Position numbers and translations under genes: made by a program. The notes under the pieces were generated by a model that had not been told where the DNA came from, ran no database searches, and saw only the letters and a list, made by a program, of their open reading frames with translations. Below, in pieces: positions 15,661-28,659 of a stretch of DNA of 64,000 nucleotides (position 1 is the stretch's first letter; the number at the start of each line of letters is the position of its first letter). Location of the stretch: the IMG/VR virus record IMGVR_UViG_3300025078_000002, positions 1-64,000 of that record. The stretch is one strand, 5' to 3'. This DNA is from a virus (lineage: Duplodnaviria; Caudoviricetes).

Positions 15661-15886
15661 TGAAAACAAACAAGAAGAGATACGATTTGTATCACAGTTA
15701 AACAAAGGTGATATTATCAATGTATTTTATCACGGAATGTGTATTAAAGAAAACTGCTTAATTGTAGAGACTATTCAAGATCACTACTTTGTTAACGGGT
15801 TGATTGTTTACCTGAATGGTTTACAAAAAGAAACTATTGATTTAGAGAATAATGACGGATTGTGGGTTACTAAGGCTGAAGTTTAG
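15647..15886 (+). CDS. Small KOW/SH3-like hypothetical protein
   Basis: LNKGDIINV...CLIVE pattern; overlaps the upstream stop. Confidence 0.5.
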   Translation: MLASNENKQEEIRFVSQLNKGDIINVFYHGMCIKENCLIVETIQDHYFVNGLIVYLNGLQKETIDLENNDGLWVTKAEV

Positions 15887-15988
15887 CCTATTCCATGCTT
15901 TGATGCATTCTTTAAATAATTGTATGCTCTTGGTAATTTTTTCTTAAGATTTTCACCATCAGAATAATATTCTAATCATATCTGGATT

Positions 15989-18754
15989 TTAAGACAGAAT
16001 TAAAGAAATGTATTTTTTAATTAGCGTCTCATTTGATTCTTGCGGATCTTGCGAGTTTTGTTTTTGTAGAAGTAGATGTCTAGTCTCACTAATTAATTTA
16101 AGTATAGATCCTTTACCAAACATTTTTTCTATATAATCTATTACAATTTTAATACCTTCGTCAGGTAAATATAAATTGGCGTCAGGTGCAAGTGTTACAG
16201 CATAATTGACGCTTCGATGTATGCCCTTAGCAATTTTAAGAACTTGCCGCTGACTCATCCCACTAAAAAACAATGATAGCAGACTAGAATTATTTGCAAC
16301 CCGTTCAAATAAATCGTTGTCACCTTCTGTATAATGTATTCTACCTAGTTCTAAACTATTCATGTGAGCTTCTGGTATTGTTTTTAGCAGAGCAATAGTC
16401 TCAAGATATTGTTCTACACCTTTCGAAGATCTTAACAAAAGCATTAAAAGATCATTAAAATGTTTTTTGCTGTTTGGTTTGATATCAATATAACTAAAAC
16501 AAGCTTCACATAAAGAGATGAGTGTCTGAAATGGTAGCTTTATTTCATAACTAATCCATCTTAAATACATTTGGAGATTGCTAATATCTGGAGGAATATC
16601 ACCTGAAATTATTCCTGAAACTAATGCTTCAGCGTATTCTTTGTTCTTTGTTTCAACTTTTCTATTATTTTTAAGTATTAATCGGGTTTCTGCAGGCGTT
16701 TGTGATTGCTTGAGTTCATCAATTAAAGGACTCCAATTGTTTGCAGTGTCAAGCTTTTGATTAATAAATTGGTGGTATTTCTGGTTTGTAATCTGCCTTT
16801 TAATGTTTTCATCTCTAATGTCTAATAAATTTTGTTCAACACCCTGTCTAGCTTTTGTGCCTAATCTATCGATGTCTTCAAAAATTATATCAATTATTTT
16901 ATTTAAAAGATCAATTCTTACACAGCTTATTATTTCATTCTGGAATAAGGTAAAAACACCACGAGTCATATTGTCAATAGATCCTGCAATTTGTGCTGAA
17001 GAAATCGTATCAAGCTCTTCAAACAGAAACTGCTGAATTTCAGGTAATTCTGTAAAGTATTTTCTTTCCCAAGGAAGCTTGCAAATTGCTGTTTTATAGT
17101 CTTTGTTTTTTGTCGGAAAGTAAAAAGTAAGCATTTTTATTAAAACATCAAGTATATCTTGGCCAGTAAGATTATCTAAGCGACTTCGATATCTTGCTAA
17201 TTGAGCAACTTGATACAATTCTACGTTCATCATTAAACGACTATTGTCAAGACTGTTTAACTTATTTAGAGACTTTCTAGAAAATAACATATCATTTACA
17301 GATAAGTGGCCGCCATATTGTATGTTACGAAAAACTAACATACCATAGCTGACTTTGTCTGCATTTTCTATGTAAATATCAATAAACCTTTCGAAATCTT
17401 TTTTTGTAACACTTTGCTTGTTTATTGGAGAAGTTATTACATCTAAAAATCTTGGAAAATAATAATTAACGTCATTGTCTGTGAAATAGTTTATTTTTTT
17501 ACAAAGTTCAGTTATTAAGTTTAAGCATTCTAAGTGAATATTTTCTATGTTGTTTTGGTCAACTTTAAAGGCTTGTAATGGATTACCACCTGTGCCAACA
17601 GCTTTATTTATTTTGTTTTTTGTATTTGAAAATAAAACGTGGTTAATAAACATACTTTCTATTTTTAAGTTATCATTAACAACTAAGTCATAAACCTTTT
17701 GTATTGTTTCGTATGTTAGCTCAGGAGAGTCTGCAACTTTATTGATTTCATTGCACCAATAAAGTGTAGGCAAAAGTCCTTCTACACTTTGTAGTTGATC
17801 TTGTTTAAAGTCTTCTTCGTCAACATCGTTTTCTTGCGCAATATCATTTAGCGTTTCAAAGTCTATGTCTAGTGCTAGCTTTTGGTCTGGAAAAAAACTC
17901 GAAACATTTGAATGCCATTCTACTTCTTTACCTACAACTCTACCTAATTCTACAACTTTTGCTTTTCTTTGAGGATTGTAAACAACGCAAACAGGTCCGT
18001 CATGGTCACCTCTAAATATAATACCGTCTATGACAGAAGTTAAATACTTGGGTGTATAATTACCCATGACGTATTTAGTAAAAGAAAAAGCAGAAGATGA
18101 AGTTAGATTTTTATTGTTAGGATCGTCCACTAAATAACTAGTCCCATTTATTCGTTGTGTTAATGGAGTGCAATATTGTTTTAAGTCTTCTTTTGTTTTC
18201 GCAAATAATTCGTCTTTTGCAAGAGAAGAAAACTTTTCATCAAACAACTTTTCTATCTGGTCTTCTAGCTTCCATTTATCACCGTGAATTTGTTTAGCCA
18301 AATCTTCAAAAAATATAATATAATTGCTAATGTCAACTTCAAATTTAAAACATATATCCCCATACAAATGAACAATAGAAGGGTTAAAATCGTAACATGT
18401 ATATAATCCTGGGCCGTACATATCTCCGTGGCCAGGTGTAAACCCAGTTCCCACTGTATATGGGTCTGATAGCAGTTCTGTAATTCCTTGAAACTCTATA
18501 TCGCTTTTACTTTGCTTGGTTACACCACTCATGGCTTTATCATAAGTAACTCTATTAATAATGTTTCTAGCACGATCTTTGACTTTTCTTGGCTTGCTAG
18601 GCTTAAAAGGTTTTTCTGTATCTTTTACATAAGACGAGTAATCTTTAAACTTTTTTGCACCTGTTAAGTGATAAACTGAAAGCTTGTTTCCTCTTAGCTC
18701 TATTCCTTTATTTTCTTTAATAAGAAAATTTTCTTTTAAACTGTACTTTGTCAT
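15989..18754 (-). CDS. Large protein (921 aa) with [LI]xE leader and N-terminal ADP-ribosyltransferase-like domain
   Basis: Start MTKYSLKENFLIKE after an AAGG RBS. VYHLTG, YGPGLYTCYD and DGIIF resemble PARP/ART-fold strands; helical C-terminal part. Confidence 0.65.
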   Translation of the reverse strand: MTKYSLKENFLIKENKGIELRGNKLSVYHLTGAKKFKDYSSYVKDTEKPFKPSKPRKVKDRARNIINRVTYDKAMSGVTKQSKSDIEFQGITELLSDPYTVGTGFTPGHGDMYGPGLYTCYDFNPSIVHLYGDICFKFEVDISNYIIFFEDLAKQIHGDKWKLEDQIEKLFDEKFSSLAKDELFAKTKEDLKQYCTPLTQRINGTSYLVDDPNNKNLTSSSAFSFTKYVMGNYTPKYLTSVIDGIIFRGDHDGPVCVVYNPQRKAKVVELGRVVGKEVEWHSNVSSFFPDQKLALDIDFETLNDIAQENDVDEEDFKQDQLQSVEGLLPTLYWCNEINKVADSPELTYETIQKVYDLVVNDNLKIESMFINHVLFSNTKNKINKAVGTGGNPLQAFKVDQNNIENIHLECLNLITELCKKINYFTDNDVNYYFPRFLDVITSPINKQSVTKKDFERFIDIYIENADKVSYGMLVFRNIQYGGHLSVNDMLFSRKSLNKLNSLDNSRLMMNVELYQVAQLARYRSRLDNLTGQDILDVLIKMLTFYFPTKNKDYKTAICKLPWERKYFTELPEIQQFLFEELDTISSAQIAGSIDNMTRGVFTLFQNEIISCVRIDLLNKIIDIIFEDIDRLGTKARQGVEQNLLDIRDENIKRQITNQKYHQFINQKLDTANNWSPLIDELKQSQTPAETRLILKNNRKVETKNKEYAEALVSGIISGDIPPDISNLQMYLRWISYEIKLPFQTLISLCEACFSYIDIKPNSKKHFNDLLMLLLRSSKGVEQYLETIALLKTIPEAHMNSLELGRIHYTEGDNDLFERVANNSSLLSLFFSGMSQRQVLKIAKGIHRSVNYAVTLAPDANLYLPDEGIKIVIDYIEKMFGKGSILKLISETRHLLLQKQNSQDPQESNETLIKKYISLILS

Positions 18755-18779
18755 TATAAGCCTTGTTATATCTTTTATG

Positions 18780-18834: not shown

Positions 18835-19752
18835 TTGTCTATTGATTTAATAACTCCACCAGACAGGTTTGTTTCTCTTCATTCTCACTCAACTTTTAGC
18901 ACTTTTGATGGATTAGGTTACCCATCAGATCATATAGACTTCGTACTTTCTGAATCACAAGGTATGGATGCCTGGGCGTTAACAGATCACGGTAATGGTA
19001 ACGGTCTTGCTCACGCACACTCGCACGCTGTCAAAATGCAAAAGGCTGGGAAAAAGTTTAGACAAATCTACGGAGTCGAATTCTATTTTGTTCCCTCACT
19101 AGATCAATGGACTAATGACTACGCAGCTCATAAACAAGCAATTAAAGATGCTAAAACAGCAGCAGCTGCTGAAAAGAAAAGTAAAGAAAAAATCATCATT
19201 GATGCTGATGATGAAAGCGGTGGTCTTGTTATAGAGGATGAAGATGAATCCAAAAAGATTGATATCCTTAAAGACGAATGGAAACGTCGCTATCACTTAG
19301 TCGTCACAGCAAGAAATAGAAAAGGCCTTAATAACCTATTCACTCTTGTAAAGAAGTCATATAAAGACGGCTTCTATAGATACCCACGCATTGACTTTAA
19401 AATGCTTAAAGAACACGGCGAAGGCTTACACGTAAATTCTGCATGTTTACACCCAGACACATCTTTACAGACGTCAGCTGGAAGTTTATCTATTAAAGAA
19501 GTTGTAGAAAGATTTAACAAAGGTGAAGAAATTCAAATTCTTTCTTACAATGAATATACTAGCAAAGCTGAGTTTAAAAAAATTATTTGGGGTGATAAAA
19601 CACGAAAGAATGCTAAGCTATTAAGAATTAAAGACAAAGATGGGAATGAAATTAAACTTACTCCTGATCATCGTGTCCTTGTTAAGGTCAAAGGTTGGAT
19701 TGATGCGAAAGATATTATAGCAGGAGACAAAATTATCAATATAAACCTCTAA
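18835..19752 (+). CDS. dnaE: DNA polymerase III alpha, fragment 1 of 4 (PHP N-part, 203 aa extein) plus split intein N-half 1
   Basis: SLHSHS, TDHGN, GVEFY, HLVVTARN and PRID are PHP motifs; extein ends ...VNSA, followed by CLHPDT. Confidence 0.93.
   Translation: MSIDLITPPDRFVSLHSHSTFSTFDGLGYPSDHIDFVLSESQGMDAWALTDHGNGNGLAHAHSHAVKMQKAGKKFRQIYGVEFYFVPSLDQWTNDYAAHKQAIKDAKTAAAAEKKSKEKIIIDADDESGGLVIEDEDESKKIDILKDEWKRRYHLVVTARNRKGLNNLFTLVKKSYKDGFYRYPRIDFKMLKEHGEGLHVNSACLHPDTSLQTSAGSLSIKEVVERFNKGEEIQILSYNEYTSKAEFKKIIWGDKTRKNAKLLRIKDKDGNEIKLTPDHRVLVKVKGWIDAKDIIAGDKIININL
19444..19749 (+). mobile_element. Split intein 1, N-half (102 aa)
   Basis: Block A CLHPDT, block B IKLTPDHRVL, ends GDKIININL followed by TAA. 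Confidence 0.92.
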
Positions 19753-19780
19753 GACAATATACTTAGTATTGTCTAGGAGG
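19746..19780 (+). promoter_or_regulatory. RBS-sequestering hairpin with ATACTTA at the loop
   Basis: AGACAATA (19752-19759) pairs with TATTGTCT (19767-19774). CCTCT (19746-19750) can pair with AGGAGG (19775-19780) with single-nt bulges. Confidence 0.65.
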
Positions 19781-19788
19781 CAGTTATT

Positions 19789-20739
19789 ATGAAAACAAAA
19801 AAGATTAATATATGGAAAATTAGAGAAGAAATACTTTTTTCATACTACGAAAAAGAAGAAATACAAAGTTTTATTGATAAACTTTATTCTTTTTCGATGA
19901 TTTACCAGATGATTTTACGAGACAATAAAAAATGCTTTAATGATTTAAACATATCATTACAGACTTTTTCAACACTTTTAAAAGATAAAATTGGCTTTAT
20001 ACTTCACCCAAATAATCAAAAAACTTCAACAGCGTTTAGGAGCCAATTCAAATTTCCTAAAAATACTACAATGGAAGAAATTGAAAATTATTATTTGAAG
20101 TCTTCTTTAAAAGGTCAAAAAGGTACAGTAAAGTCGAGAAAAAAATCTGGGAAACCTTACAATGAAAAACAGACTTTAGACTTTTGGTTAAGCATTACAA
20201 ACAACAAAGAAGAAGCAATACAAAGTTTAGAAAAGTATAAAAGATCTAATTCTCCTTTTTGTATTGAGTTTTGGACTAAGAAAGGATTAAGTGAAGAGAA
20301 TGCAAATAAAATAATCTCTGAAAGAGCTGTCAAAGGTGCGATTAATGCTCTTAAAAAAACATCACAGCCTAAAACTGAAAAGCGAATTGAATCTTTACTC
20401 AAGAAAAATAACATTGAATATTCTACGCAATATCGAATATCACTAGATAAAGATGAAACTGTGTATAATAAAAAGTGCTATGTATATGACTTTTATTTAC
20501 CTACATTTAATTTAATTATTGAATGTCACGGTCTTTATTGGCATGCTCATCCTTCGTTATACAACGAAAACTCTGTATTAAACTTTCCAAGTGGACAAGT
20601 AAAAGCAATAGACGTTTGGAATTCTGATTTGTATAAAATGAAAGTTGCAGAAAAAAGAAATTACCGCTATATGACTATATGGGAAAATGAAATTGACAAT
20701 ACAATTAGTTTAATTAGAGATCGTGTAAATATTGATTGA
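19789..20739 (+). mobile_element. Free-standing Vsr/DUF559-like endonuclease between the halves of split intein 1
   Basis: KTEKRIESLL, YDFYLPTFNLIIECHGLYWH and MTIWENE. Confidence 0.82.
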
Positions 20740-20769
20740 TTGTTTTAAAATATAAAAAAAGGAATAATT

Positions 20770-20898
20770 TTGAAAGAAATTCAAACAAAATATATTGAAG
20801 TTGATCTAATTGAAGAGATAGATGAAACTTCTGATGTTTATGATATCACTGTCGAAGATAATCATAATTTTTTTGCTAATAACATTTTAGTTCATAAC
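20770..20898 (+). mobile_element. Split intein 1, C-half (43 aa)
   Basis: Block F VYDITV...HNF and block G LVHN; +1 residue is Cys (20899). Confidence 0.92.
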
Positions 20899-22020
20899 TG
20901 TTTAGGCGGGATTTTTAGCAATAGAATACTCCGCGGCGTTGCACATGATAAGTCACGTGACGAAATCCAAAAAGATCTTTTAAACCTTACAGACAGATTT
21001 ACAGACGCAGTTGGCATTGAAAACTTCAAACTAGAACTACAGTTCAATAAGCTAAACAAACAACACGTTGTTAATGACTACCTCATAGAACATCATAAAC
21101 TAACTGGCATTCCTCTCATCTCAACAGCAGATTCTCATTACCCGAGCAACGATAAATGGCAAGCAAGAGAGCTATACAAGAAACTTGGCTGGCTCGGTAA
21201 GAAAGATAACTTAACTCTTCCAGCATTTGAAGATCTTAAATGTGAGCTGTATCCAAAAAATGCACAACAAATGTGGGATGAGTTCCTTGAAGGGTACAAA
21301 GAACACGACTTCTATAAAGGGAACGAGCAGCTCGTTAAAGAGTCAATAGAAAGAACACACGACATTGCCTGGAATGACTTTGAAGATACATGGATAGATG
21401 TAAGCGCAAAACTACCAACAATAACAATACCTAACAAGACGCCCTTTAAACACCTATCAGACTTGGTTAAAAACGCTCTCGTTACTGAAGGGTTACATAC
21501 TAATAAAGAGTACGTAGATAGAGCTAAATATGAATTGTCTGATATTAAGTATCTTGGACACGAAGCTTACTTTATTACAATGTATGAGATCTTTAAAAAA
21601 GCTGAAACAAAGACATTATTTGGAGCTGGAAGAGGCTCAGGTGCGGGGAGTTTAGTTAACTACTTGTTAGGCATTACACAACTCGATCCAATTCCTTATA
21701 ACTTGCTTTGGAGTAGATTCTTAGGCAGACATAGATGTCTAGACGAAGATACTTACGTTATATCTGAATATGGTAAAAAGAAGATTAAAGATGTTAGTGA
21801 AGGCGAAAAAGTACTAACGCATACAGGTCAGTATAGAAAAATTATTGATAAGGCTATAACACAACACGATATGGCTGTTGAAATAAAATTTAATGGTCGT
21901 AAAATTATTTGCTCACCTAATCATCGTTGGATTGTTAATCGTAATGGTAACGAAGTAGAAACAATGGCATGCCATTTACAAAAAGGTGACAAACTAATTC
22001 GATTAGCCAGAGATAAATAA
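20770..22020 (+). CDS. dnaE: DNA polymerase III alpha, fragment 2 of 4: IntC1 (43 aa) - extein (279 aa) - IntN2 (94 aa)
   Basis: N-terminal VYDITVEDNHNFFANNILVHN|CLGG. TADSHY, GRGSGAGSLVNYLLGIT, LLWSRFLGRHR|CLDEDT. TTG after AAAGGAATAA. Confidence 0.93.
   Translation: MKEIQTKYIEVDLIEEIDETSDVYDITVEDNHNFFANNILVHNCLGGIFSNRILRGVAHDKSRDEIQKDLLNLTDRFTDAVGIENFKLELQFNKLNKQHVVNDYLIEHHKLTGIPLISTADSHYPSNDKWQARELYKKLGWLGKKDNLTLPAFEDLKCELYPKNAQQMWDEFLEGYKEHDFYKGNEQLVKESIERTHDIAWNDFEDTWIDVSAKLPTITIPNKTPFKHLSDLVKNALVTEGLHTNKEYVDRAKYELSDIKYLGHEAYFITMYEIFKKAETKTLFGAGRGSGAGSLVNYLLGITQLDPIPYNLLWSRFLGRHRCLDEDTYVISEYGKKKIKDVSEGEKVLTHTGQYRKIIDKAITQHDMAVEIKFNGRKIICSPNHRWIVNRNGNEVETMACHLQKGDKLIRLARDK
21736..22017 (+). 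mobile_element. Split intein 2, N-half (94 aa)
   Basis: CLDEDT, IICSPNHRW and GDKLI, then TAA at 22018-22020. Confidence 0.9.
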
Positions 22021-22029
22021 AGGAATAAA

Positions 22030-22170
22030 ATGAAAGACAATAATCTATACGAGATTGAGGAAATCAACTTTGTACATTACGATCAAGATATGATTGATAT
22101 TGAAGTAGAAGGCGATCACACTTTCTACGTTTCAGAAGACCCCATGAATGAATTTATCTTGACACATAAT
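22030..22170 (+). mobile_element. Split intein 2, C-half (47 aa)
   Basis: IDIEV..HTFY and THN; +1 residue is Thr (22171). Confidence 0.9.
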
Positions 22171-22809
22171 ACAAGCTGGCCGGATATTGACACAGATGCT
22201 GGAGACCGAGATGAGCTGATCAACGCAGCAAAAGAGTTATATGGCGACGATGCTGTTATTCCAGTATCAAACTTTAACACGCTTAAGCTTAAATCACTTG
22301 TAAAAGACATTGCAAAGTTTTATGATATTCCATTTGACGAAGTCAATAAGGTAACTGGTCCTCTTCAAGATCAAGTTATGCAGAAAGCAATGGATAAAAA
22401 TCAAGAAAAGTCTGTATTTGTTCTTAAGCATGAAGACTGCATGAAATATTCACCAGAGTATAACGAATTTATGACAACATATCCAGAAGTTGCTGAACAT
22501 GTAGATACTTTGTTTATGCAAAATAGAAGTTGTTTTACTAAAGATACACATATCTTGACTGATCGTGGTTATATGGACATTGAAGAACTTAATCCTGTGT
22601 CTGATGGAATTGTTTATATTGACAATGAAGGCAATCAAAAAGTTAATCACGACTATGAATTGCATTATATGGGTAAAAAAGAAGTGTTTGAAATTGAAAC
22701 AGAATGTGGAAAAAAGATTAAACTTACTCCAGATCATGAAGTTATGACCCAAGATGGGTATAAAAAAGTATGTGAACTAAGTGAAAGTGATATATTGATT
22801 AAATTTTAA
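22030..22809 (+). CDS. dnaE: DNA polymerase III alpha, fragment 3 of 4: IntC2 (47 aa) - extein (120 aa, catalytic PDIDTD) - IntN3 (92 aa)
   Basis: IDIEVEGDHTFY...ILTHN|TSWPDIDTD and QNRS|CFTKDT. ATG after AAAGGAATAA. Confidence 0.93.
   Translation: MKDNNLYEIEEINFVHYDQDMIDIEVEGDHTFYVSEDPMNEFILTHNTSWPDIDTDAGDRDELINAAKELYGDDAVIPVSNFNTLKLKSLVKDIAKFYDIPFDEVNKVTGPLQDQVMQKAMDKNQEKSVFVLKHEDCMKYSPEYNEFMTTYPEVAEHVDTLFMQNRSCFTKDTHILTDRGYMDIEELNPVSDGIVYIDNEGNQKVNHDYELHYMGKKEVFEIETECGKKIKLTPDHEVMTQDGYKKVCELSESDILIKF
22531..22806 (+). mobile_element. Split intein 3, N-half (92 aa)
   Basis: CFTKDT, IKLTPDHEV and SDILIKF, then TAA. Confidence 0.92.
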
Positions 22810-22810
22810 C

Positions 22811-22851
22811 ATTTGCACCGCTTGCATATAGTTAATAGCAGGAGGTGAAAT
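22811..22851 (+). promoter_or_regulatory. RBS-sequestering hairpin with ATAGTTA in the loop
   Basis: ATTT-G-CACC-G-CTTGC (22811-22825) pairs with GCAGG-A-GGTG-AAAT (22838-22851), covering GGAGGTG. ATAGTTA at 22828-22834. Confidence 0.65.
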
Positions 22852-22855
22852 TAAC

Positions 22856-23842
22856 ATGTTATGTAAAATTTGTAATAAAGAATATAAAAATCTTGGAAGA
22901 CATGTAAGTGTTCATTATAAAAATGTAAAGTCTAAGTCAAAAAAAATGTTATATTTTCATGATATTTATAAAAACAAGTATGATATTGCTCGTGAGTATC
23001 TTGAAAGTAAAAAGTCTGCCAACCAAATAGCAAAAGAAGTCACACAACTATTTAATCTTTTTCCAGTTCAAAAAGGTGATATTTTAAACTTCTTAAAATA
23101 TATGAAAGTTAAAAAAAGAACAACTTCTGAAGCTGGTAAAGAGTATTACAAAGAAAATCCTGTTTGGAATAAAGGTTTGACTAAATATGATCATGCAAGT
23201 ATAGAGAAATATGCAGATAGTAGAACTGGAAAGAATAATCCAATATACTCACTTACTGAAAAAGAAAGAGAAGAAAAGATTTATTATTGGCGATTTAAGT
23301 CTGATGATGAACTCTTTGCAATAAGAGCTAAGATCGGAAAATCATTAAAGGAAGGTTATGCTTCAGGCAGAATAAAACATATATCTAAAACACATCCAGA
23401 AAAATTTAAAGAAATACACGCGAAAATGCTGTCTGGATATTTTGATGCATTAAATAATGGTACCATTAAAAGACAAAGTTACACATCTAGTTATGAAAAA
23501 AGAATAGCAAATATTCTAGAAGAGTTAGACATAAGTTTTATACAGCAGAAGTCTTGTAATAAAAAATATAGGTACGACTTTTTCTTGAAAGACTTTAATC
23601 TTTATATTGAATTTAATGGTGACTACTGGCATGCTAATCCGAATCAGTTTAATGAAAATTATTATCATCCTCATAAAAAGATTTTAGCAAGAGAAATATG
23701 GGAGTATGATAATGCCAAGCGTGTAAATGTAATAAATAGTGGTTATAATTTTTTAACAATATGGGAATGTGACGTCAAAGAATTCAATAGACAGCACTTG
23801 AAGGAGTATATAATTGGAATTATTAAGAATCAAAAGCATTAA
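22856..23842 (+). mobile_element. Free-standing Vsr/DUF559-like endonuclease between the halves of split intein 3
   Basis: PVWNKGLTK (NUMOD-like), SSYEKRIANIL, YDFFLKDFNLYIEFNGDYWH and FLTIWECD. Confidence 0.82.
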
Positions 23843-23951
23843 GAATACAAACACAATTCAACCCGTTTATGATATACATCATAATATTGATAATAAGAAT
23901 TTTTATGATGAGCATCCCAATCTTATTGCAAACAATATTACAATATCAAAC
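23814..23951 (+). mobile_element. Split intein 3, C-half (46 aa)
   Basis: PVYDI...HPNLIANNITISN; terminal Ser-Asn (no penultimate His); +1 residue is Cys (23952). Confidence 0.88.
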
Positions 23952-25721
23952 TGTGGGCGTCACGCTGGGGGTGTTATTATAGCAGACGCAGACCTTCTTG
24001 AGCAATCGATGCCAATTGTTGGTGTTCGTGGAGAACTACAAACACCGTGGACTGAAGGTATGAACTTTAGGAATCTTGAAGACAACGGTTTTCTAAAGTT
24101 TGACTTCTTAGGTTTAACGCTTCTTAAAGATGTAGAGAATTGCATTTATAGAATCCTAAGAAAAAGCGGAATGAAAAATCCTACATTCACAGATGCAAGA
24201 GCATTCTTTGATAAGCATTTAAACTGTAGGTTTGTCAAACAGGATGACCCTAAAGTTTGGGAACATGTGTATAAGGATGGTCACTTCGTTGGCATATTCC
24301 AGTTCACAAATCAGGGTGCTAGACAGTTTTCAATGGATGCATCGCCTGTAAGTATACAGGAGTTAGCAACAATTACTGCGATATATCGCCCTGGACCGCT
24401 TAAAGCAAATGTGCACAAGAAATATGTTAAGGCAAAAAACAATGCTAATGATATTGTGTACGATCATCCTATCATAGAAGAAGTACTTGGATATACTTAC
24501 GGCTACTTTTGCTTTCAAGAGCAATTCATGTTGATGGCACAAAAGCTTGCTGGGTTTTCACCGGGTGAGAGTGATAAGTTACGAAAGACGCTTGTAAAGA
24601 AATCACTAGATACTTTGCATTCTAAAGGATCAGAAAAGGCAATTGCTAGAGAGAAGTTTATTAAAGGTGCCAAAGAGCTCAATGACATTCCTGAGAGTAT
24701 TTCTTCGAAGCTCTGGCAAGACATAGAAGGTTTCGCAGTTTATGGCTTCAATCTTTCCCATGCAGTTGCATATGCTATTGGGTCGTATTATGCGGCATGG
24801 CTACATACACATCACGAGACTGAGTGGATGGCAGCAATATTGCAATCTGAGAATGGTAATCCTAAAGGAATGTCAAAAGCCATTTCAGAGATTAAGTCAT
24901 TTGGATATGAAATTGCTGCAATAGATATAAACCACTCTGAAGCTGAATGGGAATATTCTGATGTGTTGAAAGCTTTTGTGCCGCCGTTGACATCGCTTAA
25001 AGGAGTAGGTGATAAAGCTGTTGAAGAAGTATTTGAAAATAGACCATATAAAAACTTATCAGATCTATTTTACAATGAAGTAGGAGAATGGAGACATTCC
25101 AAGCTGAACAAAACAGCTTTTTCGTCATTAGCAAAGATGGAAGCATTTAAGTCTCTCCAGGAGTTTCAAGATGATGTATTAGATAATCATAAGCAAATGT
25201 ATGATTTAATCTTGGATAACTATAATCTACTCAAGAAAGGTAGATATGGAATGACAAAAACTGCCGTAAAAAGAGCGTTAAAGAATGATGAAGAGATTGT
25301 GCCTATTGTTGATGAGTTGATTGCGAAGTATAAGGTTGTTAGTGATTGGAGTAGGAATGAAAAGATTAAGAACTATTTTGAACTCAGTAATGACGCAAGT
25401 GACGACCTATTGTTTCCACCTAGATTATTGAACAAGTTAAAACAGAAAGAAATCTCCAGTGTGTTTGATATACCTTCTGGAGATCGTGGTATTGGATGGT
25501 TTACAGTGACTGAGGTTATTCGTAAGACGACTAAGAACGGGAAGGCGTTTATGAGGTGGAAGTGTGTAGACTCAGACAATCGTAGCGGATGGTTACGAGT
25601 TTGGGGGTCATTAGATGGCGAGGTTGAGTTTAGTACGTGGCTTGCTGATGTGAAGAATGATGCTGGATGGGGAATGTCTACGAATCTAGGTAAGCTTAAA
25701 AAGATTAACGCTTTTGATTAA
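23814..25721 (+). CDS. dnaE: DNA polymerase III alpha, fragment 4 of 4: IntC3 (46 aa) plus 589 aa extein (palm, fingers, HhH, OB)
   Basis: ISN|CGRHAGGVII, LKFDFLGL, GIFQF, AIYRPGP, FQEQFM, YGFNLSHA, LKGVG (HhH) and terminal OB-like strands. TTG after AAGGAG. Confidence 0.93.
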   Translation: MELLRIKSIKNTNTIQPVYDIHHNIDNKNFYDEHPNLIANNITISNCGRHAGGVIIADADLLEQSMPIVGVRGELQTPWTEGMNFRNLEDNGFLKFDFLGLTLLKDVENCIYRILRKSGMKNPTFTDARAFFDKHLNCRFVKQDDPKVWEHVYKDGHFVGIFQFTNQGARQFSMDASPVSIQELATITAIYRPGPLKANVHKKYVKAKNNANDIVYDHPIIEEVLGYTYGYFCFQEQFMLMAQKLAGFSPGESDKLRKTLVKKSLDTLHSKGSEKAIAREKFIKGAKELNDIPESISSKLWQDIEGFAVYGFNLSHAVAYAIGSYYAAWLHTHHETEWMAAILQSENGNPKGMSKAISEIKSFGYEIAAIDINHSEAEWEYSDVLKAFVPPLTSLKGVGDKAVEEVFENRPYKNLSDLFYNEVGEWRHSKLNKTAFSSLAKMEAFKSLQEFQDDVLDNHKQMYDLILDNYNLLKKGRYGMTKTAVKRALKNDEEIVPIVDELIAKYKVVSDWSRNEKIKNYFELSNDASDDLLFPPRLLNKLKQKEISSVFDIPSGDRGIGWFTVTEVIRKTTKNGKAFMRWKCVDSDNRSGWLRVWGSLDGEVEFSTWLADVKNDAGWGMSTNLGKLKKINAFD

Positions 25722-25733
25722 CAATATTTACAA

Positions 25734-26300
25734 CTAAAATCTGTAAGCATCAATGTCTTGTTGCGACATTAAACCAGACTGCTGCAAAAACATTTTAAAA
25801 GCTTCGCTTTCGTTTGATATACCGACAAAAAGTTTAGAAGGACCACCAGCTACACGACAAGCCTTAAAAAATTCTTCTTCAAGCATATCAATTTGATTCT
25901 TCATGTCAGCACGAAACTTGTCTTGAAGTTGTCTGTTTTCAAACGCCTCGAGAATAATGTCAATCGAACCAGCTACGGTAACACCTACGCTAATTGTAGT
26001 TAAAGCTGAACCTGCAATTAATGCAGGTGTCCCTACAGCTAACATTGCAGCCATACCAATTACAAAAGCAGAAACTCCAGGATAGTATTCTTGTATCTCT
26101 TGTCTTCCACTTGCACTTCTCATTGCGTTAACAGCTTCTTCCCAGCTGTTTACTTTTTGCCTTAAGATATTTGACTTTTCATGACCGCTAACACCTGCTA
26201 GCGCGTCAAAGTGATGCATATCACCCATCATTTCATTTAATCGTGATTCTTTGATTACTTGTCTGATCAGCGATCGTAAACGTCTTTCTGTAATTTTCAT
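25734..26300 (-). CDS. Hypothetical protein with MKITERRLRS...IKE leader and a hydrophobic hairpin
   Basis: AGGAG RBS. VSAFVIGMAAMLAVGTPALIAGSALTTISVGVTVAG is a predicted membrane segment. Confidence 0.75.
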   Translation of the reverse strand: MKITERRLRSLIRQVIKESRLNEMMGDMHHFDALAGVSGHEKSNILRQKVNSWEEAVNAMRSASGRQEIQEYYPGVSAFVIGMAAMLAVGTPALIAGSALTTISVGVTVAGSIDIILEAFENRQLQDKFRADMKNQIDMLEEEFFKACRVAGGPSKLFVGISNESEAFKMFLQQSGLMSQQDIDAYRF

Positions 26301-26357
26301 ATTTGTTTTCTCCTAAAATATGTTCTTAAATATGTTCTTAAATATGATAAAATTATT

Positions 26358-26435
26358 GCTGATGTGAAGAATGATGCAGGATGGGGTATGTCGTCAAGCC
26401 TTGCTAAACTTAAAAAGATTAATGCGTTTGACTAA
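26358..26435 (+). pseudogene. Orphan copy of the last 25 codons plus stop of dnaE
   Basis: ADVKNDAGWGMSSSLAKLKKINAFD* versus ADVKNDAGWGMSTNLGKLKKINAFD* at 25644-25721. Confidence 0.88.
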
Positions 26436-26449
26436 GAGTTAAATTTAAA

Positions 26450-26926
26450 CTACATAATATATTTGTTAGTATCTGGGTCAATTTCCATAGGAGGATTTTG
26501 AACACTAAATACTCCTCTTTCCATAGCTATTTGGTCTATTTTGCTAATAATCGACTTAAGCTGATCTATACTAAATTTATCACCATAATTATATCTCTCA
26601 ATTGCATCACGATCTAAACCATATTGCTCAATTCTTGGATCTTCTGCAGACCGTCTGTCTGAATAAAAATTGTTGTTTACTTCAATCATATCGATGCCTT
26701 CTTTTTGACATACTTCTCTATATTTGAGCATTTTTAACATATATTTTCTATCAGTATTGCCAGAGTATGATGTATCTGCCCATTCTCTATTTAACATTCT
26801 TCCCATATCTTTAATATAAGACTTTACATATTCTTCAACTTCTTCAACTTTAGGATCGTGGTTATCTATACTTTCTTTTATAACACTTCTAATAATTGAG
26901 CGTAAACGTCTTTCTGTAATTTTCAT
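26450..26926 (-). CDS. Hypothetical protein with MKITERRLRS...IKE leader
   Basis: Same 5' end as 25734-26300 but an unrelated body. Confidence 0.75.
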   Translation of the reverse strand: MKITERRLRSIIRSVIKESIDNHDPKVEEVEEYVKSYIKDMGRMLNREWADTSYSGNTDRKYMLKMLKYREVCQKEGIDMIEVNNNFYSDRRSAEDPRIEQYGLDRDAIERYNYGDKFSIDQLKSIISKIDQIAMERGVFSVQNPPMEIDPDTNKYIM

Positions 26927-26951
26927 ATTTGTTTTCTCCTAAAATATGTTT

Positions 26952-27704
26952 TTAAGTATGTTCTTTGAACGTGTTTTTACTTTTGTCTAGTTTATATATA
27001 TTTTTAATATCAAGTATACTTGAACTAACGTACTTAACAGCATCTATATCGTTTGACATAATATAATCTATTGCAGTGGTATATTCTTGCATACTAAAGG
27101 ACTTAAGTTCTTCCAAAGCTTGATAAACAATTTCACCTGATTCTGATGCAAATGATTCATAAGATTTGTATCTTGAAAGAACGTGCATTTTACCTCCTTG
27201 CGGAACCAGAGCTGTGTGTGGAGATCCTGATGAAAGTATTGGGTGAGGTCCACCTTTTACAAAGTGTTTTCGAATTACGCTTGATGTAAAACCGTTGCTT
27301 GTTAGTCTATCTATATTGTTTACATACCAGTCAACAAAAAATCCTGCACATATTTCTAAGTCTGGAAGAAAGTCAAGGTTATTTTTATAATCTTTTTCTA
27401 CAATTAATAAATAATCAGCGTTATTATTGCTAAAAGCTTTTTCTAAAATCTTGGGTTTACAAAAAAAGTAGATACCTGATCCTTGTCCAGATGATGCTTG
27501 CTTTGTGCTTAAAGATGTAGCATTGTCTAATTTAAGACCGCTGTTAAACTTTTCAGGAGGATAATGTGTAATATGATATAATGTTTTGCCTTCTGTATGT
27601 AGCTTGGCAATGTCACTAAGTGTTAGTTCTTCTTTTCTTTGTTCTAAGAGTATTTTCCACTCATACAACATATTTTTAAATTCTTTTTTAGAAAGTTTAT
27701 TCAT
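26952..27704 (-). CDS. Leader-bearing protein with ADP-ribosyltransferase-like motifs
   Basis: LYEWKILLEQ leader; TLYHIT ... GQGSGIYFF. Confidence 0.55.
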   Translation of the reverse strand: MNKLSKKEFKNMLYEWKILLEQRKEELTLSDIAKLHTEGKTLYHITHYPPEKFNSGLKLDNATSLSTKQASSGQGSGIYFFCKPKILEKAFSNNNADYLLIVEKDYKNNLDFLPDLEICAGFFVDWYVNNIDRLTSNGFTSSVIRKHFVKGGPHPILSSGSPHTALVPQGGKMHVLSRYKSYESFASESGEIVYQALEELKSFSMQEYTTAIDYIMSNDIDAVKYVSSSILDIKNIYKLDKSKNTFKEHT

Positions 27705-27718
27705 TTATTACTCTTTTG

Positions 27719-27746
27719 TGTAAATTTATTTTAAATATTATATAAT
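27719..27746 (+). promoter_or_regulatory. Putative promoter TGTAAA-N16-TATAAT
   Basis: TGTAAA 27719-27724 and TATAAT 27741-27746, upstream of the kinase-TS fusion. Confidence 0.7.
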
Positions 27747-27768
27747 AATATAAAAAGAAAGTGCAATT

Positions 27769-28659
27769 ATGAGATTTTTTAATATAAACATTGAAGGTCC
27801 TGACTGTAGTGGTAAAACTACGTTATACAATAGACTCCATAAAGAAACAAGCTTTAAGTATAACATACAAGACAGAAGTTGTATGTCTATGTTTGTTTAC
27901 GCAAAGATGTATGGAAGAGAAGACACTTCACTTTGGTTTGACAAAGTTTTAGATGATCTAAAACGATTGGATACACTTTATATTGTGTTACTCCCGTCTG
28001 AAAGTGTTGTGCTTGATAGATTGCGCGTTAGAGGGGATGATTTTCAAGATGAAATAAGTGTTTTAGATGTAAGAAATCATTTTAGAAATATATCAAAAAT
28101 GGGTTTTGGTTCTTTTCCAAATGTGTTAGTATTAGAAGGAGACGACTTAGAGAAGAACGTTGAAGTTGCATTGTCATTTATTGACGCATTGAATGATATG
28201 CCCGGGCAGGAATTGATAAAGTCTTTAGTATTTAATAGTGGCAGAAATGAGTTGATTGATGTTGAGTGTAAAGAAGTAGTTGATAGAAGTAGTCTAGACT
28301 TGACAGTTTTAGATTTTCCTGAAGAAAAAGAATATTTTGAAAAAATTGAGTTTGAGTTTTTTAATAAAATATTTAGAGAGTTTGTGGGTTTAAACGAGCA
28401 TAATAAATCACAAAAGCATGATAGTAGAAGATTTATATACACTAGTGATAGTTGTATATCGATGATACATTTTTTGTGGCGTCAAAATAAATTAAATGTG
28501 TCGGCGTCTCTAAGGTCTTCAAATGTATCGAAAACTTTGTGGGCTGATTATGAATTTCTTAAGATACTTAGTGTAAGAGCAGCCAAAGAGATGTCTTTAC
28601 CTGAAGACATTGAGATAAATTTAACAGTCAATATTAGGTCTGCACATATTGTCCCTTAG
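27769..28659 (+). CDS. dNMP (thymidylate-kinase-like) kinase fused to a thymidylate-synthase-fold, dCMP-hydroxymethylase-like domain
   Basis: IEGPDCSGKTT and IQDRS (kinase). SRRFIY, SCISMIHFL, LRSSNVSKTLWADY and IRSAHI (ThyA/gp42 fold). Confidence 0.75.
   Translation: MRFFNINIEGPDCSGKTTLYNRLHKETSFKYNIQDRSCMSMFVYAKMYGREDTSLWFDKVLDDLKRLDTLYIVLLPSESVVLDRLRVRGDDFQDEISVLDVRNHFRNISKMGFGSFPNVLVLEGDDLEKNVEVALSFIDALNDMPGQELIKSLVFNSGRNELIDVECKEVVDRSSLDLTVLDFPEEKEYFEKIEFEFFNKIFREFVGLNEHNKSQKHDSRRFIYTSDSCISMIHFLWRQNKLNVSASLRSSNVSKTLWADYEFLKILSVRAAKEMSLPEDIEINLTVNIRSAHIVP

Follow-up and report, generated by a model that had tools for sequence, protein, structure and literature searches.

The dnaE-to-kinase region of the window

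We examined the region between the 3' end of dnaE and a downstream kinase gene in a 64,000-nucleotide stretch of viral DNA (the window). The window starts at position 1 of a virus contig of 74.8 kb in IMG/VR (IMGVR_UViG_3300025078_000002), the completeness of which is rated at ~30%. The region carries, in order, the last piece of an intein-split dnaE, an antisense gene (gene188), an orphan copy of the dnaE tail, two further antisense genes (gene158 and gene250) and a deoxynucleoside monophosphate (dNMP) kinase fusion gene (Table 1). Here we argue that the orphan tail is a scar left when a block of DNA was acquired from a related phage, and that the region is probably a slot for cargo genes which share an N-terminal leader. 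The window belongs to a clade of uncultured marine phages with genomes of ~240 kb and a T4-type head, which has no cultured member. A complete relative with terminal repeats (G001, 239.5 kb) shows the same gene order around dnaE, and megablast of window positions 23800-27800 against GenBank phages gave no match. A DnaE protein search supplied 20 related loci as the comparison set for dnaE ends, a metagenome scan with a degenerate pattern added contigs L048, L049 and L050, and the contents of the dnaE-to-kinase slot were compared across ~25 relatives.

A first-pass annotation of this DNA had drawn attention to the repeated tail, and its description proved exact. The final 25 dnaE codons and the stop (25644-25721) recur at 26358-26435 with 13 nucleotide differences in 11 codons, of which eight are synonymous and three conservative (T>S, N>S and G>A), and TAA is the stop in both copies; over the 80 nt of the full repeat the identity is 84%. 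Each tail is followed after 12-14 nt by the stop of an antisense open reading frame (ORF), of 188 amino acids (aa) in the first case and 158 aa in the second. The two genes begin with the same kind of leader (type A, described below) and share an exact 50-nt run, made up of 26 coding nt and the ribosome-binding site (RBS) region, within a 93-nt repeat at 87% identity. Their bodies are unrelated, with no BLASTP match past residue 19. The third antisense gene, of 250 aa, has a different leader and was absent from the annotation. No larger ORF containing the orphan tail was found, the predicted RNA fold of the spacer is unstructured (z = +1.3), and a promoter/terminator scan of the region returned matches at chance level.

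Table 1. Features of the dnaE-to-kinase region, in window coordinates
Feature	Position	Strand	Basis
Last piece of intein-split dnaE (Pol III alpha finger and helix-hairpin-helix domains)	23814..25721	+	Pfam DNA_pol3_finger 1.2e-35, HHH_6 1.4e-9; 80-82% aa identity to L003-L008 and L022
Resident dnaE tail, repeat copy 1, allele of L048/L004/L060 type	25642..25721	+	Repeat comparison
gene188: type-A leader, conserved 40-aa N-terminus, Gly/Ala-rich hydrophobic residues 75-117; resident, also in L048	25734..26300	-	Homologs at 65-84% identity; hydropathy
Leader 1 coding region, 18 codons, ends I-K-E	26247..26300	-	Leader alignment
Exact 50-nt repeat, leader start and RBS	26275..26324 (copy 1), 26901..26950 (copy 2)		Sequence identity
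12-bp tandem repeats upstream of type-A RBS, with remnant of L048-type intergenic region	26316..26345		2 copies here, 3 in L048 and L049
Proposed left illegitimate joint, L048-type intergenic region meeting foreign dnaE at -80	26346..26358		Only TTG common to both
Whole proposed acquired block, missing from L048	26347..27768		L048 comparison
Orphan dnaE tail, repeat copy 2, non-coding scar, allele of L008/L022 type	26356..26435	+	Tail alignments to relatives
gene158: type-A leader and soluble ORFan body, proposed as acquired with block	26450..26926	-	ORF, homolog searches
Leader 2 coding region, 18 codons, ends I-K-E	26873..26926	-	Leader alignment
gene250: different leader ending L-L-E, possible ADP-ribosyltransferase body (lead only), proposed as acquired with block	26952..27704	-	ESM Atlas lead
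Divergent intergenic region, L008 type	27705..27768		78-90% to L008, 50-83% to L048
dNMP-kinase fusion gene, proposed right homologous crossover at its conserved 5' end	27769..28659	+	L048 alignment

Origin of the orphan dnaE tail

The first-pass annotation had held that the orphan tail came from the working dnaE of a related phage, and had suggested as a check that it should match another phage better than its own genome. Both points were borne out. The orphan tail is nearer to six relatives (L022 93%, L008 92%, L006, L003 and L020 91% each, L021 89%) than to the resident dnaE at 84%, and its translation is the same as the end of the working DnaE in L008 and in L022, from whose genes it differs by 6-7 nt, all of them synonymous and none non-synonymous. 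Since the translations are the same, the three conservative changes that separate it from the resident tail represent an allelic difference between functional genes. Chance substitution would seldom give such a pattern: when 13 random substitutions were placed on the resident tail in 100,000 simulations, three or fewer non-synonymous codons together with the lack of a stop had P ~1e-5. The appearance of coding constraint in the scar arises only from its being a young copy of a functional allele.

What such a scar looks like after decay is illustrated by contig L050, which comes from a data set independent of that of the window. A second orphan tail lies on its reverse complement at ~560-720, next to a leader-upstream region and inside a four-gene array with type-A leaders. 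It begins at dnaE -80, as does the window orphan, and has accumulated an in-frame TGA and five non-synonymous codons. By this standard the window scar is young. A tail-core scan of IMG/VR revealed no further orphan tails, and two of its matches were attributable to chance.

A block missing from a close relative

The comparison most informative about the event is that with L048, which is 98.6% identical to the window over 20899-26346, after which the alignment resumes at 27742 and shows zero mismatches in the aligned stretch of the kinase gene, from its ATG to ~27931. The gene188 region is ~98% identical overall, and the leader-proximal coding part at 26200-26300 is identical. In L048 the order is dnaE, tail 1, gene188, three 12-bp repeats, an intergenic region of 106 nt and the kinase gene. 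In the window, ~40 nt of this intergenic region are replaced by a block of 1.4 kb in which the orphan tail is accompanied by gene158, gene250 and L008-type intergenic sequence. The window thus holds a discrete block that is missing from a near-identical genome and has flanks which match another relative, as is expected of a mosaic joint; L008 and L022 lack the acquired genes themselves. Contig L049 is just 77% identical to the window and yet has both the layout and the intergenic sequence of L048. Because so distant a genome shares them, the single-cassette form is the older one and is not derivable from the window by deletion.

The first-pass annotation had attributed the array to out-of-register recombination that stacked two alleles of a variable slot bounded by the dnaE tail and the leader. 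We support the stacking, for which L048 supplies the single-cassette parent type, with the refinement that the block carries two genes. As to the bounds, the dnaE end holds, whereas the leader has to be replaced by the kinase gene, at whose start the right crossover lies. On these comparisons the window lineage was once of the L048 type, with dnaE, gene188 and the kinase gene, and the block came from a related phage in the same host cell, of the L008/L022 type both at the end of dnaE and in the intergenic sequence next to the kinase gene. The right crossover was homologous and took place where the 5' part of the kinase gene is conserved, and the left joint was illegitimate, with 3-nt microhomology and a breakpoint 80 nt inside the donor dnaE, so that these 80 nt were kept as a non-coding scar. 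The net result was a gain of two new cargo genes with retention of the resident gene188. An orphan tail is in itself an ordinary product of phage mosaicism, rarely seen in so clean a form; the novel part is the recombination history.

A 12-bp unit occurs in 2-3 copies directly upstream of the type-A RBS (window 26316-26345 and 26942-26965; L048:13927-13962), and its copy number varies between near-identical genomes. This unit was not seen in front of other genes; it is specific to type-A leaders and no genome-wide promoter. A more general scheme can be imagined in which portable homology arms are provided by the dnaE tail and by the leader/RBS. With an orphan tail in place, any co-infecting relative could then add, remove or swap whole cargo cassettes through ordinary homologous recombination, tail copy with tail copy and leader copy with leader copy, in the manner of an integron without an integrase, and dnaE -80 would be a preferred breakpoint. 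The last idea arises because the two apparently independent orphans, in the window and in L050, start at the same base; the scheme as a whole we consider doubtful.

A conserved leader in front of variable bodies

The 18-residue type-A leader is a basic helix with the consensus M-[KR]-I-T-E-x-x-L-R-x-[IL]-I-[RK]-x-[VI]-[IL]-x-E, of which MKITERRLRSIIRSVIKE is a typical example. The 28 distinct proteins that carry it fall into 25 body clusters without detectable similarity. An [IL]-x-E motif occupies residues 16-18, with Glu18 present in 26/27 type-A leaders, and conservation collapses at residue 19. Synonymous changes make up 45% of the codon differences in leader codons 2-18 vs 6.5% in codons 19-24, and mean identity in the 30 nt upstream of the leaders is just 44%; on these figures the leader is constrained at the amino-acid level, as a peptide. 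Endings of the form [LIF]-x-E at residues 5-19 are enriched 2.7-fold among the ORFs of the window genome and 1.7-fold in G001. The leader has no significant amphipathic moment, its value being reached by 6% of shuffles. Several leader types coexist in the clade.

The suggestion of swappable cargo behind a fixed leader, made from two genes in the first-pass annotation, found support in the comparison, both in the 25 unrelated bodies that follow one leader and in one body, that of gene158, which follows two leader types. The annotation had also called for a comparison of slot content among relatives, and this showed 0-4 genes per slot, almost all antisense and almost all different. Judged from these sequences, the stretch from the dnaE stop to the kinase gene is a hyperplastic accessory-gene slot.

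Pfam and PHROGs returned nothing for gene188, gene158 or gene250, and IMG/VR scans with peptides of the first two and a degenerate gene188 pattern did not identify full-length relatives, which were found by the metagenome scan. In the gene188 subfamily (alignment A1) the first 40 residues are nearly invariant and precede at least five unrelated hydrophobic bodies. Within these 40 residues there is another L/I-N-E site, at 21-23, as well as a stretch rich in His, and all the bodies have Gly/Ala-rich hydrophobic segments. For gene158 there are two relatives among 5.8 billion clusters; an exhaustive profile search recovered its own cluster and one spurious repeat protein, and the ESM Atlas gave no lead. 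A body 59% identical to that of gene158 also follows another type of leader, which again ends in hydrophobic-x-E. In the ESM Atlas both feature-based and structure-based comparison put gene250 close to the DarT, PARP, Arr and ART-PolyVal clusters, and conserved motifs of the H-Y-E ADP-ribosyltransferase kind are present in gene250 and seven homologs; a PDB profile search gave no confirmation of this lead.

The leader as a putative capsid tag

In T4 a 10-residue N-terminal capsid-targeting sequence suffices to load internal proteins and foreign fusions, and the gp21 protease cuts after L/I-x-E (PMC9026906). The relatives of the window have the corresponding head genes. Peptidase_S77 (PF03420) was identified in G001 and G002 at 99 and 88 bits, that of G001 (L023:1402-2004, minus strand) matching T4 gp21 (PDB 5JBL) at 1.4e-16, and a Gp23-type capsid protein (PF07068) in G001 at 220 bits. 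Also encoded by G001 are a scaffold-like protein that is very acidic and has many L-x-E sites, and a small protein of the head module with an N-terminus similar to the type-A leader. The capsid protein of the clade is 33-40% identical to those of huge phages and RM378. We propose that the leader is a capsid-targeting propeptide which would dock on the acidic scaffold core and be removed after Glu18 by the gp21-type prohead protease, while the variable bodies would be loaded into the head and probably injected. Taken as a whole, the recombination history together with a slot for capsid-targeted cargo is in our judgment a probable account of the region.

Alternative explanations

The history of the block could have run differently. 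A donor may already have held the array of leader, joint, orphan tail and gene158 and passed it on by two homologous crossovers, on the left in the leader/RBS and on the right at the kinase start, in which case the illegitimate joint would be older than the transfer. The details of leader 1 weigh against our preferred order of events: the window follows L048 as far as the RBS spacer, where 2 nt and one 12-bp unit depart from L048 and match leader 2 and L006 instead, so that the left crossover may have lain inside the leader, in a donor that carried the joint. The independent L050 also joins a leader-upstream region to an orphan tail at the same dnaE position. Yet the 2-nt patch could equally stem from a later short conversion by leader 2, 626 nt away; the L050 orphan is nearer to the functional L008 tail (10 nt differences) than to the window orphan (14), which does not favour a single joint; and a tail with 0 non-synonymous changes relative to L008 and L022 has not been non-coding for long. 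We consider a pre-formed donor array possible, though unlikely. The joint at 26346-26358 is, moreover, known from the assembled contig alone, and an assembler could in principle have joined two co-occurring strains with different slot alleles, given the metagenome source, the repeats of 50-93 nt within the region and the existence in nature of both parent types. A mis-join through the common 50-mer would have swapped genes and not stacked them, however, and the joint shares 3 nt, which is below any assembler k-mer, so that the reads must contain it. With a comparable leader-to-orphan-tail joint in the L050 data set, a chimera is very unlikely. Tandem duplication of tail and gene in situ, followed by divergence, would explain the direct repeats at both ends of a unit of 626-714 nt. 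We reject it as exceedingly improbable, for the gene bodies are unrelated, the orphan tail is nearer to six other phages than to its neighbour copy, the substitutions are non-random, and against L048 the block stands out as a separate foreign insert whose intergenic region is of the L008 type. A site-specific array of the integron kind was also considered and rejected, as we found neither a recombinase ORF in or beside the slot nor inverted repeats at its borders, and the multi-gene slots of L008, L021 and L022 contain no orphan tails.

The function of the leader is a separate matter. It might serve as a docking peptide for some other phage machine, as a membrane-associating helix or as the recognition sequence of a modifying enzyme. 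Several points weigh against a capsid tag. The clade leader has 18 residues and is basic, whereas the T4 targeting sequence has 10 and is neutral, and we know of no sequence similarity between the two. The hydrophobic stretch of gene188 fits one or two membrane helices and is unusual for soluble head cargo, and hydrophobic segments recur throughout its subfamily; these segments speak for another role. AlphaFold models are of low confidence (predicted local distance difference test scores of 59.7 for gene188 and 59.4 for gene158) and assign no function. Upstream of the leader genes we found no enriched k-mer that could represent a common promoter motif linking them to late expression. The head genes come from relatives with ~82% DnaE identity, the 74.8-kb contig of the window having neither protease nor capsid genes, and the packaging, cleavage and injection that the leader probably directs are deduced by analogy. 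On the other side, soluble bodies also carry the leader, conservation ends precisely at I/L-x-E, the relatives possess a gp21-type protease, scaffold-like and head-module proteins have the same kind of N-terminus, and G000, G001 and G002 contain no radical-SAM gene that could serve as a partner of the tag. We regard a function apart from the capsid as rather unlikely.

Other mosaic tracts and variable sites

Recombination and mosaicism are frequent in the clade. Over 24400-24900 the identity of L015 to the window is 97.5-100%, and further on it falls to 79-86%; the breakpoint lies inside dnaE, ~1 kb downstream of the last endonuclease-like ORF. Within the kinase-fusion gene a patch at 28232-28411 is 62-77% identical to L048 between flanks at 95-100%, which indicates a small mosaic tract. 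Window positions 19450-20898 (1449 nt, comprising intein halves and a free-standing 316-aa ORF) are missing at L048:8509-8514 while their surroundings are 95-100% identical; DnaE pieces 1 and 2 of L048 form one ORF of 576 aa, the empty-site allele for the first of the three split inteins of the window. A second variable cargo slot lies across dnaE from the first (window 15791-18773, L048:4046-7838) between flanks of 97-100% identity. There the window has one antisense leader gene of 943 aa and L048 has two different leader genes, of 777 and ~280 aa. At the end of a 153-kb IMG/VR contig, L047:650-6177 holds at least seven leader genes on one strand, five of type A and two of other types.

Significance and comparison with known systems

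The locus offers an unusually clean natural record of accessory-gene gain by a phage, with both joints readable to the base. A genome of the recipient type (L048) is on hand, as are relatives with the donor-type tail allele and intergenic region (L008 and L022), and the scar is relatively datable, since it has 0 non-synonymous changes against the decayed scar of L050. At least 25 candidate cargo proteins are supplied. If our reading is right, it extends the T-even logic of a variable locus encoding leader-tagged and probably injected proteins to a deep-branching marine clade that replicates with DnaE. The corresponding cargo of T4 blocks restriction enzymes directed at modified DNA. The slot adjoins a gene thought to modify cytosine, from which we infer, tentatively, a link to anti-restriction cargo of the T4 kind.

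The genes for T-even internal proteins share only the targeting leader and lie in hyperplastic loci (PMC12373910, PMC3012670, PMC2839356), as described by Repoila et al. 1994 in the form summarised in PMC2839356, PMC12373910, PMC9026906 and PMC3012670. The slot resembles these loci in its non-homologous small genes with nothing in common but an N-terminal leader ending in L/I-x-E, and in the adjacency of conserved leader and regulatory sequences to variable genes. In the clade, a gp21-type protease and a gp23-type head are known from the relatives G001 and G002. T4 cargo comprises anti-restriction proteins and the ADP-ribosyltransferase Alt, to which gene250 would be a parallel if its possible ADP-ribosyltransferase identity is real. 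In contrast to T4, the clade is distantly T4-like and replicates with an intein-split DnaE, and packaging, cleavage and injection are predicted for its leader proteins. By this analogy we regard the slot as a putative functional analogue, not a homologue, of the T-even internal-protein loci in a deep-branching T4-like clade.

The mode of gain recalls the modular shuffling mediated by promoter early stem-loop (PeSL) elements in T4-type and lambdoid phages (Arbiol, Comeau and Krisch 2010, PMC2839356) and the accretion of morons in Hendrix's model, as cited in PMC2839356. As in those cases, ORFans were apparently gained intergenically in a hyperplastic region, between close genomes, by way of short conserved flanks and/or illegitimate joints. 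Unlike in PeSL shuffling, the cassette borders have no promoter/stem-loop and are formed by leader-coding sequence and by the 3' terminus of an essential gene. The locus further differs from the PeSL and moron cases in that a datable orphan-tail scar survives and near-parental genomes of both types are on hand.

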